Virus genome (UHGV): UHGV-0140636
Direction: 5' to 3' (one strand)
DNA length: 39,875 nucleotides
Source of the DNA: a virus
The notes beneath the pieces are model-generated. The model saw only the letters and a list, made by a program, of their open reading frames with translations, was not told the origin of the DNA and made no database searches. The position numbers were made by a program, and so were the translations under genes. Of this stretch, positions 2,006 to 16,174 are shown in pieces. Numbering within the stretch: position 1 is the first letter of the stretch; the number at the start of each line of letters is the position of its first letter.

Positions 2006-2884
2006 TCAGTAGTTATGTACTGAAGGAGGTAATTCTTTATTCTTAAGTCTCATCCATGCGGAAAGATTCGTTGGTCCGTCTGGCTCATTGATATCAACAT
2101 CTCGTGAGTGATTGATTAAAACGTCTCTCGCTATATCGATAATACGGGAGAACTCATAACCGCAGTCATGACATCTGCCGGAATAGTTCGATTGAATTTG
2201 TTTCAGCGCCGGATACAGTTCGCGGAATAATGCTTGTGAGCGGTTGGCATAATCCCATAGCCATACAAGGCTGTTTGCTTCTTTTTCAGAAAGCTCGTTG
2301 GTTTTCTTCTCTTGTTTGCCGATAAACTCGCCTTCAAGCACTACCCTGTGGATGTACTCTACGGCCAGCGGGATTTGTTCAATTGAAAGTTCATCAATGT
2401 TGTCAATACCAAAACGCTGATGAACCATATTGTATGCATCGTCATAGCGAAGTCCTTTCTTTCCTACCAGCATGTTTACTGCATCGCGTAGCGGTGTTCT
2501 TTCCTCAACAGTGGTTTTCTTTCCTTTTACATACTCGCCATGTTTGCGAATTGAAGGCAGAACTTCTGCTGTTACCCACTTGCGGAATTTGTGCGGGACT
2601 GAACCTTTATTGACTGCATCGCGGCAGCGCAGAACCAATGTATACATACCTGATTCGCTCACAATGCTTAGATTCTGCTCACCACCAAGGGTGTAACTTA
2701 AAGTTACTCCCTTTTCATCGTCATCAAGTGCAGTAAGCGCCTTGCGTGAGTTAGTCAAATCTAAAGCATCACAAACATCTTTAGCTACAAACCACAGCTC
2801 ACCGCACTTGTTGATGACGCGGATTTCACTGTCGCCGAATTTGAAGATGGTGAAATCGTTTTGTGCCTTTGCTATACTTTTCAT
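2006..2884 (-). CDS. ant: Antirepressor Ant, Bro-N type N-terminal domain
   Basis: 292 aa ORF in the position of P22 ant downstream of arc; N-terminal [30 protein letters not shown] resembles Bro-N domain. Confidence 0.75.
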
Positions 2885-2952
2885 GTCAATATTTCCTAAT
2901 CCGATTTGTTGATGCCGAAGCCCTGACTGTTACAGCAGTTGGGGCTTCAACT

Positions 2953-3114
2953 TTACGCACCAATGCGCCCTTCCTTCTTAAAGCTTTCCATTACTCGCTG
3001 ATAAATCTCAGAATTAACAGACCGACCATTTTCTTCCGCCACCTTGCGTACCAAATCCAATACTTCTTTAGGCCACCGCAAATTGAACTGTGGCATTTTG
3101 CTCATTCCTTTCAT
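2953..3114 (-). CDS. arc: Arc repressor
   Basis: MKGMSKMPQFNLRWPKEVLDLVRKVAEENGRSVNSEIYQRVMESFKKEGRIGA is near identical to P22 Arc as recalled; start taken at internal ATG 3114 preceded by GAGGTG. Confidence 0.9.
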   Translation of the reverse strand: MKGMSKMPQFNLRWPKEVLDLVRKVAEENGRSVNSEIYQRVMESFKKEGRIGA

Positions 3115-3128
3115 GTTCACCTCACAAT

Positions 3129-3177
3129 ATAGGTCCACAGTGGACCTATTGAGAATATAGTAGAGTGCTTCTATCAT
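3129..3177. promoter_or_regulatory. Divergent Pant/Pmnt control region with O_mnt (3129-3149) and O_arc (3157-3177)
   Basis: Palindrome ATAGGTCCACAGTGGACCTAT and ATAGTAGAGTGCTTCTATCAT match P22 mnt and arc operator sequences as recalled. Confidence 0.7.
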
Positions 3178-3204
3178 GTCAATACACTAACTTGGAGTGA
3201 TGGC

Positions 3205-3459
3205 ATGGCTAGAGATGATCCGCACTTTAACTTCCGTATGCCTTTGGAAGTAAGAGAAAAATTGAAATTAAGAGCCGAGGCTAACGGAAGGTCAATGAAC
3301 TCTGAGTTATTACAAATCGTTCAGGATGCACTATCAAAACCATCACCGATTACAGGATATCGCGACGAAGCTGAACGCTTGGCTGATCAGCAGGCTGAGC
3401 AGTTCAAGGCTATAGTGTTTGAGACACTTAAAAAGATTTATGAAAAGGATTTGAAATGA
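3205..3459 (+). CDS. mnt: Mnt repressor
   Basis: MARDDPHFNFRMPLEVREKLKLRAEANGRSMNSELLQIVQDAL matches P22 Mnt. Confidence 0.9.
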   Translation: MARDDPHFNFRMPLEVREKLKLRAEANGRSMNSELLQIVQDALSKPSPITGYRDEAERLADQQAEQFKAIVFETLKKIYEKDLK

Positions 3460-3791
3460 GATTTCTATCACTGTTCTTGTTAGCAGTTGTCTCTTCTTCC
3501 AGTGCTGAGCTGCGCGAGCTTCAAACGGGTAATGACCTTCTTTACAACATTCAACAAGGTAAAAAGGGTGATGATTTTTCATCGCTTTACATTACTGGAT
3601 ATTTGCGCGGAGTAACTGACTCATTGATACTAATTGGTTCTCTATGTCCTCCTGATGGCGTTGACATGTATCAATACACCGATATCGTTGAGAAATATCT
3701 AAACAAAAACCCAGAATCAAGAAATGAGAGTGCAGTTATACTAACCGCCCTAGCAGTAGGAAAAACATTTCCGTGCAAAAAGAATCAATAA
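3456..3791 (+). CDS. Small secreted protein, unknown function
   Basis: ATGA start-stop overlap with mnt; N-terminal signal peptide MRFLSLFLLAVVSSSSA; two Cys in mature part; AAGGA RBS. Confidence 0.6.
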   Translation: MRFLSLFLLAVVSSSSAELRELQTGNDLLYNIQQGKKGDDFSSLYITGYLRGVTDSLILIGSLCPPDGVDMYQYTDIVEKYLNKNPESRNESAVILTALAVGKTFPCKKNQ

Positions 3792-3806
3792 CAATAAGGG
3801 CTTAAA

Positions 3807-4196
3807 ATGAAATTGATTATAGCAATGGCTTTCCTTGTCTTCTCGTTTTCTGTCTCAGCAGAGTGCTGGGTCGTTGGAGATATGCACGGAATAAGCTATT
3901 CAGAACGAAATAATTTTCAACCGGAAGAAGATGGTTTTAGTGGAACATTCATCATTAAGACAAACGGTGAAGATGCCAGTATCACATATTCTGGGACGGA
4001 TGCGGGCGGCATGGCTTACAAAGCATTGTCTAAAAACTCCATCATTGGAATCGGCGCGAATGGCGAAACTCAACGAGTTATCGACTCATGGGTAATACAT
4101 CCTAATGGAACAGTTTTAATGTCGAAAACCATTTCTGGTTATGGGAATATGGATTCAACCAAAGCTTTTGTTGGAAAAGTAAAAAGAAAATGTTAA
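3807..4196 (+). CDS. Small secreted protein, unknown function
   Basis: Signal peptide MKLIIAMAFLVFSFSVSA followed by mature domain with Cys near both ends; 16 bp downstream of previous ORF. Confidence 0.6.
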   Translation: MKLIIAMAFLVFSFSVSAECWVVGDMHGISYSERNNFQPEEDGFSGTFIIKTNGEDASITYSGTDAGGMAYKALSKNSIIGIGANGETQRVIDSWVIHPNGTVLMSKTISGYGNMDSTKAFVGKVKRKC

Positions 4197-4220
4197 CGAT
4201 TGAATCCAATTCCCCATACG

Positions 4221-6062
4221 TTACTGCTGTGTTGCCTCAGTAGCAAGCAGCGGCCTGATGGCATTTGCAGCGTTACTCAACGCTCTTTCATAGGCTGGCG
4301 TTCCAGCTTTAGTGTTTGCCAGACGTAAGAGAGCATTCCTTGCTGCTTTGGACTCATACAAACGCATCATTGCACCAAAGCCAGCCTCAAGCCCCATTGA
4401 TACACCAAGAGTCGCAGTTGCGCCAATCGTCCTTATCCTGTTGGCTTGTGATTGCCCCGTCTGAGTTACTACATTTGCGGTGTCTGACCTTGCTGTTTGC
4501 TGTAGAACTTCATGAAGAGCATCAAGCTCTTTCATGTGCTTTCCAGAAAAAATAGTGTTGTAAATTTCACCGCCTGACTGAGATTTCAGCTTATTAACTT
4601 CAGTGATGAACTTGGCTGGAGAGTCACCGGCCTTTTCCGCTATTTTGCTGACGTAAGCTGCACGCATAGCATCTTTCCCTTTATCATCCAGGGCGCTCCA
4701 TATTCGTTTCACGTCAGATGGTTTTCTGCTTAATACAACGGTATTTATAAGTTCAGGACTGGCTTCACTGCTTGCCTTGTTGAGCTTGTTAGCAATGTTT
4801 TTATTAAGCACCTTATTATAAACGTTTGCATAATCGGAATTTGCTTTAAGGTATTTTGCTGCGTCTGATGCACCGAGGTTTTTAGCAACTGCGTTACGAA
4901 GGTCTTTTGACATTGCATTCTCTACCATATTGGTAGCTGCTTTTGCCTGGTTGGGGAAGACCATAGCATCTCCCTGAACATTAGATCTAAATGCTGTTCT
5001 GTGCTGACGCAAGAGATCAAACGTAACATCCAAATCAGTTGCAGGGTTTGCTAATTCTTCACGTAGGTTACGCAAGGATGTAAGCAGGCTTTGATTGGCA
5101 GACGTCCCAAGCCGTTCCTGTCTTGCGATCGCTGTATTCAGAGCATTCATGGTATTTGTGGTATCAACTGCGGCATTACCCATTTTATTGGTGACGTCAT
5201 TGATAACAGCGCCAGCGGCATCCTTCCGCCCCCTTAACGTGGTGGTAAGAGATTTCACCACATCATCAGGGTTGTACTCACCAAAACGGTCAAAATAATT
5301 ACTTACCAGCTTACTACGCGTTGCATATTGCTCCGCTCGCTTTGAGCCTGTCCCGAGCAAAGCCCCCTCGGCATCCTGAGTTAGGCCGCGAGTGAAAGCA
5401 TTTTTCGGCGGGATAACATCAGATGTCATTGGTGTCACGCCCATCGATTCTGATGTGGCAATTTTCTTCGCCACTTCTGGCGCAATATCACCTTTTATAG
5501 CCGTTATTCCACGCCCTATTCCCTTTGCTGCTGCGGAAAGAACACCCTGAGTGGCAAGGTTAACTCCGGCATTTTTAGCTGCATTTTGTGCGAAATCGCC
5601 TTTCTGATTTGCGGCCTCTGCCAGTGATCCAATAGCCATGCTTCCTGCCGTTCCAACTCCTGGAACTAAATACCCACCAATTGTTTCACCGGCTTGCGCG
5701 TAGGGGTCTGTCGGTCTGTCTACTGGACGATAAACATCATCCAAAACCTTGGGTCCACCAAGCCCCTGACTGATTGCATTAATCAGACTTGCGCCGCCCT
5801 GCAATACGTCAAATGGTATGTTTACCAGACCACGACCAGCCTGTTCTGCAATTTGCCCTGCACTTTGACCACCAGTGAGCCAATCGCCAGCTTGTTGCAT
5901 CAATGATGGTTCTTCCCGTGTTGGTGCATTATTGGCCTGATTAACTATTTGTTGCTGAACAGCCTGACCAGCAAAATACTCATCAATGGCGGTGCCAATA
6001 TCTTCGGTGCTCGTACCATCAGGAAAGGTAAATGTCTTACCGTTTGCAGTTACTTTCATCAT
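4221..6062 (-). CDS. gp16: Ejection (injection) protein gp16
   Basis: 613 aa; position and size match P22 gene 16; start [16 protein letters not shown]. Confidence 0.8.
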
Positions 6063-14008: not shown

Positions 14009-16174
14009 TTATTGAGGTGTCTCGGCTACTCCGCCGGAGGGGATTTGAACTTGACGCATAAGATTCGCGAAATCCATGCGTTGTGAATGAGTCTGGTCTG
14101 CATCTTTAAGAAGCAGCTCAGCGTTAGCACGAGCATCTTTGCTGCGCTGTTGCTGGAATTGACCTACGAGCTTGAGGTACTCACGCAGTTCTGCCTGCTT
14201 GTCGAGGTCCATATTGTTGAAGATTTCCGCAATCTTCGCGGCGTTGAGTTGGTTTTGGGCTTCAACCTTGGCGGCTTCAACCTGAATCTGCGCCTGTTGG
14301 TTCTCTGCCTTGAGCAATTCAGCCTGACCTTGCAGAAGGATACCCTGCGCCTGAATTTGCTCTGCTGATGGCTGCTGCGGCTGCTGTTGAGCCTGCTGTA
14401 CCATCTCCATCTCTTCAGGTGTTTCTGGCTTCTTCAGCCCCATCATCACCAGTTGCTTGTTCGCGTACTCTCGCATCATCTCGACGCCTTTACCGTCAAG
14501 CAGCGTGAAGTATTGCAGCATCAGCATCTGGAACTCTGGAGTACCTTGCGGAACCTTGGTGAGCAACTCCTGAATCTCTGCGCGGTTCTGTTCCTTCATA
14601 CTCTGGAAGGATGGTCCTACGTCTGTATAGCACTCATAGCGACCGCGAATGTCGTTGAGTGTGACCACATTGCCGGACTGGTAATCGACAACTTGCGCAT
14701 AGAGTTGAACGTCTTTCTCGCTTCCGTCTTCAAGAGTCAGCGTTACATGGCGAGGAACGTCATAAATATCGTTGACCATTGAGGCATAAATCTCGCCATC
14801 ACGTCGCATTGCGGTAGCCAGGTTATCCTGAAACACGTATGTCTCAAGGTCTGCCCGCATGTTCAGTTGATTGACGGTATCGAAAGCGACCTGACCATTT
14901 GCCGCCTGCGCATCAACTCCAAGACTAGCCACCTCTTTCACTGCGTTGGTGGCTGCCTCAAGCATGTAAGCGTTGGCTTGCGGCACTTCAGGGTTTTCCA
15001 TGTAGGAGATTGGACCAATCGGCAGGTCGTTACCGTTTTCATCAGTCCTGTTCTGGAGATAGTACGGATAGTCATCATTTCCACCGTACATGTATTCGTA
15101 GCCTTCGATTTGCTCAGGGAAGAAGGTAGGTTTCTTCTTCGGTGAACGAGCAACAATATCGGCGTTGAATGACATGATCATGTTACGAAGGCGTTGACCG
15201 TCTTTCGTCAGCCTTACCACGCCCTCGTAGCACTCCTTGTCACCAGCGAATGACCATTCGCCGTACACAGGAACGATTGGGATATGCTCTCCGGCTATCT
15301 TCTCGCGGTCTTTCAGTATCTGCGTGCAGGTGATGATCGACTTATACACACGCCGACGCTTGACCTTACGCTCTGCTACCTTAATGAATCCACGATTAGC
15401 CAGGTCGTCGATGACGTCTTTGATATCCTGCTGGTAATAGCTGACCGGCTCACCTGTCAGCGGGTCGCGGTAGATGAAGACTTTCTCTTTCTTCTCTTCG
15501 ACCTCGTAATACTCAGCGACGTAGACGACATCATTCGATACCCACGGAAACAGCCATGTATCGTTTGGATTCTGGAAAGATGGCAAGGTGTCCGGATCAA
15601 TACCGTAATCCTCTGCGAACTCTTTCCAGCCATTGCGCGACAAGGCGTTAATCACCGTGCAGTGCTTAGCGTCGCTCTTATCCATCTGCTTGCTGTTGGC
15701 GTCCCATATGACGTGTGAGCAGGCTTCATGAATTGGCAGGCGTCTGATTACCTGATTGTTGCTTGTTGGGTCGTTGTCTTCGTACTGTGTGACCAGACGC
15801 CATGCACCAACGCCGGACTCTATCTGCTCACGAACGCCAACGTTAACGGCAATCTTTGCCGTGTTATGGCGCATATCAGTACGATACATCCCCATCAACA
15901 CATCGGCTGCATCAGGATTAGCGCCGTCTTTGGGTCGGAAGAGAACGTCGATAGGGTTCCGGCGCATCTCTGCGACCAGTTTCCTGACCACCGGGCGAAC
16001 AACATCGAATTGTCCGCGATATTGCAGGGTGGTGTAGTTTGATAGCCAGTCATCCCATTGCGACACTCGGCTAAAATACAGGTCATTTGTCGCCTCGGTT
16101 CTGGCTTCATCGCTCGCCATCCAGTCTGCGTCAAACTTACACAGAATGGAATTGAGTCTGTTTTCGTCGGCCAT
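14009..16174 (-). CDS. gp1: Portal protein gp1
   Basis: 721 aa, synteny and size as P22 portal. Confidence 0.9.

Follow-up and report, generated by a model that had tools for sequence, protein, structure and literature searches.

The 39,875-nt virus genome UHGV-0140636 (hereafter the window) is a P22-like prophage that is present at 100% identity in E. coli chromosomes. Its immI region keeps the P22 layout (ant, the sar RNA, arc, the overlapping Pant and Pmnt promoters, and mnt), and the slot between mnt and gene 16 holds two small genes, here termed orfA and orfB (Table 1). A preliminary description of the region had compared this slot with that of P22, and the comparison agrees with the P22 record (BK000583), in which the slot is occupied by orf59a, the mnt terminator, the sieA promoter and sieA. 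In the window, the slot may instead hold two independent lysogenic-conversion genes with exported products, probably transcribed with mnt from Pmnt: an orphan immunity gene of the Rap1a/Tai4a family and a gene of the family of phage 434 Hex and Sf6 gp38.

Table 1. Features of the mnt-to-gene-16 slot and of the neighbouring immI region (positions in the window).
Feature	Position	Strand	Description
orfA, orphan Rap1a/Tai4a family	3456..3791	+	111 aa; predicted signal peptide aa 1-17 (3456-3506); mature aa 18-111; C64, C107
orfB, Hex / Sf6 gp38 family	3807..4196	+	129 aa; predicted signal peptide aa 1-18 (3807-3860); mature aa 19-129; C20, C129
Right-hand mosaic junction	3856		orfB codon 17, end of signal peptide; start of 94-98% DNA homology to other P22-like orfB alleles
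mnt (maintenance repressor)	3205..3459	+	84 aa; Pfam Arc 3.7e-28, Repressor_Mnt 1.3e-11
Pmnt, promoter-like	3149-3177	+	TTGAGA-17-TATCAT; promoter scan
Pant, promoter-like	3182-3154	-	TTGACA-17-TATATT; promoter scan; overlaps divergent Pmnt
arc repressor	2953..3114	-	RefSeq 53-aa coding sequence, Arc family, from L001 5498-5659; arc-mnt about 90% DNA identity to P22
sar antisense RNA	2886..2952	+	Rfam RF00262, 65.6 bits (gathering 43), E 1.5e-11, full-length model
ant (antirepressor)	2006..2884	-	292-aa ORF; the copy in E. coli C is named 'phage repressor protein/antirepressor Ant' by RefSeq
Gene 16 homologue (ejection protein)	4221..6062	-	613-aa ORF; convergent with orfB, 24 nt beyond orfB
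Promoter-like site inside orfA	3661-3688	+	TTGACA-16-TATCGT; 10/12 matches, consensus-only

Both open reading frames (ORFs) have the positions and sizes that the preliminary description gave. The overlap of the orfA start with the mnt stop, also claimed there, is seen at 3456-3459, where the ATG of orfA (3456-3458) and the TGA of mnt (3457-3459) share an ATGA; an AAGGA lies 6 nt upstream of orfA, and orfB starts 15 nt after the orfA stop with an AAGGG 6 nt upstream. The orfA product begins with MRFLSLFLLAVVSSSSA followed by ELRE, a leader of canonical n/h/c type in which S-S-A precedes the predicted cut, and that of orfB with MKLIIAMAFLVFSFSVSA followed by ECW. A hydrophobic N-terminal core is found in 50/51 members of the orfA family and in 97/97 aligned members of the orfB family, where it is usually followed by AxA-x-Cys-[WYF]. 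Both proteins are predicted to be exported via Sec-type leaders, and the signal peptide and cysteine pair attributed earlier to each of them are found again, the leaders as predictions.

The matches of the two products to hidden Markov models (1e-15 to 2e-60), together with a large excess of synonymous over non-synonymous change (for orfB, dN/dS is 0.18-0.44; for orfA, dS is saturated), argue that these are real genes under purifying selection rather than chance ORFs. At 39-40% GC, compared with 47.7% in the window, both have the composition that acquired cargo typically shows. RefSeq (WP_002432306.1) starts orfB at Met26 (window 3882-4196; L001:6427-6741), which gives a protein of 104 aa that has lost the signal peptide; because there is a good ribosome-binding site at 3807 and the leader is family-wide, this start is probably wrong and the 129-aa start at 3807 is to be preferred. 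A 79-aa antisense ORF (3343-3582) was rejected as a gene, since it recurs only in 13 loci with near-identical orfA DNA.

The preliminary description recognised neither protein, and here it has to be corrected. RefSeq already names orfA (WP_001211768.1) a 'Rap1a/Tai family immunity protein', and the protein matches Pfam PF18602 ('Rap1a immunity proteins') over all 90 positions of the model, scoring 55.3 bits (E 9.7e-15; cut-off 27.7). A profile of 51 orfA relatives matches the crystal sequences of AtTai4 (1.5e-7) and Rap1a (1.1e-5), with which C64, C107 and the C-terminal FPCK motif align. The AlphaFold2 model of orfA (predicted local distance difference test score 90.4) has four mature-domain helices after the leader, and its top seven Foldseek matches in the PDB all belong to Rap1a or AtTai4 (4bi8, 3zfi, 6ije and 6ijf), with a probability of 1.00 and template-modelling scores of 0.72-0.75; the probability of further matches is below 0.4. 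PADLOC and NCBIfam gave no match for orfA. On these comparisons of sequence and model, the family and fold of orfA are established as those of the Rap1a/Tai4a immunity proteins against type VI secretion system (T6SS) amidases. Rap1a, whose crystal fold has five helices, is described by Srikannathasan et al. (PMC3852654) as a dimer located in the periplasm, with a signal sequence of 26 residues and a disulfide that joins C78 and C122; its target is Ssp1, an endopeptidase of the Tae4 family, whose active site it blocks.

OrfB matches PHROG 2651 (2.3e-60) and no Pfam, NCBIfam or PADLOC model. Its tblastn match to orf129 of Salmonella phage Emek, a gene that likewise adjoins gene 16 and is likened to Sf6 gp38 in its own record, shows 87% identity; Sf6 gp38 and the gene downstream of cI in phage 434 are matched at 29% identity (100% query cover, E 3e-7). 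The 434 gene, annotated as a 'repressor protection protein', is Hex. The alignment of orfB with Hex and Sf6 gp38 is collinear over the full length and keeps the leader and the ECW start, with C20, W21, W95 and C129 invariant. An exhaustive profile search extended the family to 140 clusters, almost all of 120-150 aa, of which none matched a Pfam family. In the structure predicted for orfB, everything beyond the leader is beta, and the barrel has C20 at one end and C129 at the other; the mature protein is thus modelled as an exported, disulfide-closed beta-barrel of about 110 residues. Sequence searches of the PDB with orfB and its family gave chance-level matches only, Foldseek against the BFVD viral models gave nothing significant for orfB, and neither a family-model match nor a specific structural match to the periplasmic lysozyme inhibitors MliC/PliC was found. 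The window holds no second copy of a Hex or Rap1a gene.

Several other assignments were tried and rejected. OrfB is not taken for a lipoprotein, since different members have different residues ahead of the cysteine (E, D, K, N, Q, T and others) and the family as a whole lacks a lipobox. Nor does it look like an outer-membrane barrel, to judge by its short strands, its charged sequence and its KRKC end, which has a conserved terminal cysteine instead of an aromatic residue. Homology to SieA was rejected for orfB (BLASTP against P22 SieA, E 3.2; a model that is all-beta after the leader) and for orfA, which is assigned to an unrelated family (PF18602). As to paralogy between orfA and orfB, a profile-profile comparison of the two families aligned the leaders only.

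Elsewhere, Hex-family genes follow cI, adjoin RexAB in a siphophage tail cluster or adjoin an integrase, and one stands by itself in a chromosome; except for the last, these positions are typical prophage cargo sites. In the tail cluster (L098:6001-7822), the Hex-family gene (31% identical to orfB) lies on the opposite strand, directly beside rexB and rexA homologues, and the group looks like a small exclusion or defence islet.

The expression of the two genes can be approached from the similarity to P22. An ungapped alignment of 517 bp (90.3% identical) places the promoter-like sites of the window exactly on the annotated mnt promoter of P22 (14798-14826, BK000583) and on its arc/ant promoter (14793-14821). 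No terminator-like site was found on the + strand between mnt and orfB. Because the two promoters map onto their P22 counterparts and no such site intervenes, co-transcription of mnt, orfA and orfB from Pmnt in the lysogen is plausible. The promoter-like site inside orfA, which matches the consensus only, could drive orfB in part independently of Pmnt. The megablast match to P22 is confined to window 2915-3431 and ends at about 3431, in the last codons of mnt; this loss of homology is taken as the left edge of the cargo module.

The close relatives of orfA that could be placed (55-82% identical) all lie directly after mnt or a remnant of it, in P22-like prophages or their remnants, in Serratia, Tatumella, Silvania, Buttiauxella and E. 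coli. The 4-nt overlap with the mnt stop is present in every relative that has an intact mnt, except in Serratia sp. JSRIV002, where the Rap1a gene starts 17 nt after mnt without overlap. The order is mnt, Rap1a, gene 16 in the latter strain and in Tatumella. In Serratia fonticola it is mnt, Rap1a (with the 4-nt overlap), a second Rap1a gene and gene 16, such that tandem genes of the family (L004:8001-8715; 112 and 119 aa, 32% identical) fill the entire slot. A second E. coli lineage has a Rap1a gene (65%) followed by a Hex-like gene (49%), as does a prophage remnant of Silvania confinis after a partial mnt (L104:4903-5742; 67% and 49%), and in Buttiauxella the Rap1a gene lies in a remnant with an mnt fragment. 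A scan of genome contigs with the orfA clade found one locus only, that of Silvania. The gene is rare, being present in 25-26 of 5,426 complete E. coli genomes. In E. coli C (L001), the cassette is kept in a prophage that lacks the genes beyond gene 16. Since neighbouring virion genes have been lost while the mnt, Rap1a and Hex-like cassette is intact in decayed prophages (E. coli C and S. confinis), retention of the cargo by the host is suggested.

Other genes that follow or replace Rap1a in the slot (L090:3815-4042, L087:7379-8048 and L094:2002-2454) have envelope-targeted products without a Pfam match. Among them is a conserved, multi-cysteine lipoprotein of about 76 aa, present in Tatumella and Buttiauxella. 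Two others, of 135 and 150 aa, are related to each other; that of L094 is a lipoprotein with an LSGC lipobox, and that of Buttiauxella is secreted and lacks the lipobox cysteine.

The relation between orfA and orfB was studied in 80 IMG/VR loci whose orfB is 87-100% identical. In nearly all of these, orfB lies directly beside gene 16 and convergent with it (exceptions include L047, L051, L058, L061 and L074); orfA is present in 13 of the 80. In the other loci, the cargo between mnt and orfB varies: lipoproteins, a SocA/Panacea protein, a ClpP-like protein and a P63C protein. When window 3100-4400 was compared by blastn with eight loci, all eight alignments started at 3856, and seven continued into gene 16; in L047, the gene 16 match resumes about 1.8 kb further along the locus. 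The homology has edges at about 3431 (to P22) and at 3856 (to the orfB alleles), and therefore the swapped module is made up of the tail of mnt, orfA and the leader of orfB. It follows from this composition that the donor, too, had a Hex-like gene after its Rap1a gene.

These data bear on the idea, implicit in the preliminary description, that orfA and orfB form a pair. Their adjacency, their probable co-transcription and their co-occurrence in three diverged lineages could indicate that they are subunits of one two-component system that functions only when both are present. This we regard as highly improbable: orfB occurs without orfA in about 66 of the 80 viral loci, and complete E. coli genomes with orfB number 148 against the 25-26 with orfA; in Serratia and Tatumella, orfA has no orfB with it; the recombination junction falls between the two mature domains; and proteins of the Rap1a family act alone as homodimers (PMC3852654). 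From their sequence contexts, the two genes are rather to be seen as independent modules and not as an obligate pair.

The preliminary description had suggested superinfection exclusion or an orphan immunity function for the two proteins. Homology divides these roles, assigning orphan immunity to orfA, and Hex, which is linked to exclusion, to orfB; neither family is a characterised one of unrelated function, and the sole discordance is the cytoplasmic, RecA-related activity of a Hex fragment (see below). By analogy with the known members of the families, we lean towards a reading in which the lysogen makes and exports both proteins, with orfA neutralising a Tae4-family T6SS endopeptidase and orfB excluding P22-like phages at the envelope. 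Translation of orfA would be coupled to that of mnt by the ATGA overlap, and its product would be a periplasmic, disulfide-bonded, all-helical protein, expected to dimerise and to block the active site of a Tae4-family peptidoglycan endopeptidase as in Rap1a-Ssp1 and AtTai4-Tae4. This endopeptidase would be one injected by the T6SS of a rival, and the lysogen would be protected from other bacteria. The orfB product would be a periplasmic beta-barrel whose first and last strands are joined by a closing disulfide, encoded where P22 has sieA; it would most likely exclude superinfecting P22-like phages at the envelope, plausibly by disturbing the ejection-protein conduit across the periplasm, and would be functionally analogous to SieA though unrelated to it. 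The lysogen would thus probably gain protection against both rival bacteria and rival phages.

A number of points weigh against this proposal. Export, disulfide formation and transcription from Pmnt are all predictions for both proteins. For orfA, a Tae4-family effector that might be the cognate toxin was found neither in the window nor beside the approximately 10 relatives examined, which is why orfA is termed an orphan immunity gene, and T6SS immunity proteins are usually highly specific (PMC3852654). Rap1a/Tai4-like genes are also present in the unrelated phages DSL-LC04 (L105:2432-2758) and Dartukuta (L106:1836-2198), without an obvious lysogeny context: one of them lies in a run of small early-type ORFs, and the other phage is recorded as infecting Bacillus. 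Bacillus is a host not known to have a T6SS. The genes of DSL-LC04 and of the phage recorded from Bacillus fit T6SS immunity poorly. For orfB, identity to Hex is only about 30%, the exclusion phenotype of hex is known second-hand, and the activity ascribed to a Hex fragment is a cytoplasmic one.

The contexts of orfA might also be explained if its target were not a T6SS effector at all but the cell-wall hydrolases of incoming phage virions, in which case it would itself act in superinfection exclusion. All loci of the orfA clade and of its more distant relatives (Rap1a-like proteins at 33-40%) that were examined belong to phages or mobile elements, none of them with a Tae4-type effector alongside, and Rap1a-like genes exist in phages without a lysogeny context. 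Some P22-like gene 16 homologues that lie beside Rap1a-like genes, those of Serratia and Tatumella (L006:8536-11337 and L089:7646-10429; 927-933 aa), have an SLT lytic-transglycosylase domain. In the window, the gene 16 protein has 613 aa; the Phage_P22_gp16 domain of Pfam is present in the gene 16 homologues of related loci. On the other side, the family, fold and disulfide of orfA match those of proven neutralisers of Tae4-family T6SS effectors (PMC3852654), and a Tae4-type phage hydrolase was not identified in the approximately 10 contexts sampled. An action on virion hydrolases seems to us improbable. An extended form of it, in which the mnt cassette would be a two-layer periplasmic exclusion module, with orfA directed against virion peptidoglycan hydrolases and the Hex-like barrel against the ejection conduit, we would likewise give a slim chance; were it true, the mechanism published for Hex, cytoplasmic and directed at RecA, would have arisen as an artefact of using a leaderless fragment.

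What is known of Hex itself comes from Shkilnyj et al. (PMC3564112), the only biochemical study of the protein. According to these authors, hex is co-transcribed with cI from PRM, and its deletion raises spontaneous induction in recA+ hosts only; in vitro, RecA-stimulated cleavage of both the 434 and the P22 repressor is inhibited by a Hex fragment. They also state that Salmonella lysogenic for lambda imm434 excludes P22 and that hex- lysogens do not, hence the term 'heterologous exclusion', and they cite Susskind and Botstein (1980) for the phenotype. OrfB, being a full-length homologue of Hex, might then act in the published manner, that is, by a cytoplasmic block of the RecA-stimulated autocleavage of C2/CI-type repressors that stabilises lysogeny, with no exclusion at the envelope. 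We consider this quite unlikely. A Sec-type N-terminal leader is predicted in all 97 family members examined, and the conserved cysteine pair at the ends of the barrel points to an oxidising compartment. Moreover, the active fragment used in that study, 'sHex', begins exactly at the predicted mature N-terminus (ECW...) and covers half of the barrel only, and the term 'signal peptide' occurs nowhere in the paper (0 occurrences). Hex of phage 434 (L002:2501-2905) has a canonical leader, MIRIAALLSILLTTSANS, followed by ECW, as well as the terminal cysteine pair of its family. The conflict, then, is between a family that looks exported as a whole and a sole published mechanism that is cytoplasmic.

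Another possibility is that orfB is a second immunity protein or inhibitor, directed against an exogenous toxin that targets the envelope, be it a further T6SS effector, a bacteriocin or a lysozyme; in that case, the cassette would provide a double antibacterial shield and would have no anti-phage role. Given the exclusion attributed to hex, on the one hand, and the partnership with an immunity gene in some loci, on the other, we find this possibility doubtful and keep to exclusion at the envelope as the role proposed for orfB.

Neither family is new, and the automatic naming of RefSeq already covers orfA. The novelty appears to lie in the recurrence, among P22-like prophages of several genera, of an orphan Rap1a gene coupled to mnt, in the presence of a Hex-type protein in the sieA slot of many coliphages, and in the conflict between the published mechanism of Hex and its predicted export. 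If orfA works as predicted, P22-like prophages of at least five enterobacterial genera carry, on the message of the maintenance repressor, an antidote to a contact-dependent cell-wall toxin. Lysogeny would then alter bacterial warfare, for example that of E. coli against Tae4-armed Salmonella, Enterobacter and Serratia, and this would be a simple case of a phage repaying its host by protecting it from other bacteria. Many coliphages fill the 'sieA slot' with an unrelated, probably periplasmic, Hex-type protein, and orfB would offer, beside SieA, a second entry point for studying how the delivery of DNA by short-tailed phages is blocked.

In comparison with known systems, orfA is closest to Rap1a of Serratia marcescens (SMA2260, of the 'Tai4a' class) and to Tai4 of Agrobacterium tumefaciens, with which it shares PF18602, a predicted helical fold, a signal peptide (in orfA a predicted one), the conserved cysteines, the FPCK motif and a mature length of about 95 residues. 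The spacing of C64 and C107 almost equals that of C78 and C122 in Rap1a, the disulfide in orfA being predicted. The identity to these two proteins is, however, only about 24-26%, and orfA, which is described from sequence and model, differs from them in lying in a phage immI region, translationally coupled to mnt, with no effector or T6SS gene beside it. The Rap1a/Rap2a pairs of Serratia T6SS clusters are echoed by the tandem of the S. fonticola prophage.

Orphan T6SS immunity genes are also found on mobile elements, as in the acquired interbacterial defence clusters of the Bacteroidales and the orphan immunity arrays of Vibrio. Like these, orfA is an immunity gene without an effector that could protect its recipient from attackers; unlike them, it is a single gene in a P22-like phage and, to judge from its position, is tied to the transcript of the phage's maintenance repressor. 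Ralstonia prophages carry T6SS auxiliary clusters (PMC11481896). In the literature library searched, Rap1a and prophages gave nothing relevant and no paper that links the two meaningfully.

The closest counterparts of orfB are 434 Hex and Sf6 gp38, with which it shares collinear homology of about 30% over the full length, a leader followed by ECW, and a terminal cysteine pair. The cassettes are alike in being prophage cargo immediately downstream of a lysogeny repressor, and hex overlaps the stop of cI as orfA overlaps that of mnt. In contrast to hex, orfB lies in immI beside gene 16 rather than after cI and is second in its putative operon, and its role in exclusion is proposed by analogy. 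With SieA of P22, orfB has in common its place between mnt and gene 16, convergent with the latter, probable expression from the prophage and, as proposed here, a comparable role. The sieA gene has its own promoter after the mnt terminator. SieA, as described by Leavitt et al. (PMC10883804), resides in the inner membrane and acts on the gp16/gp20 conduit, through which it blocks the delivery of DNA, whereas orfB, which has no sequence similarity to SieA, is predicted to be a soluble periplasmic barrel.

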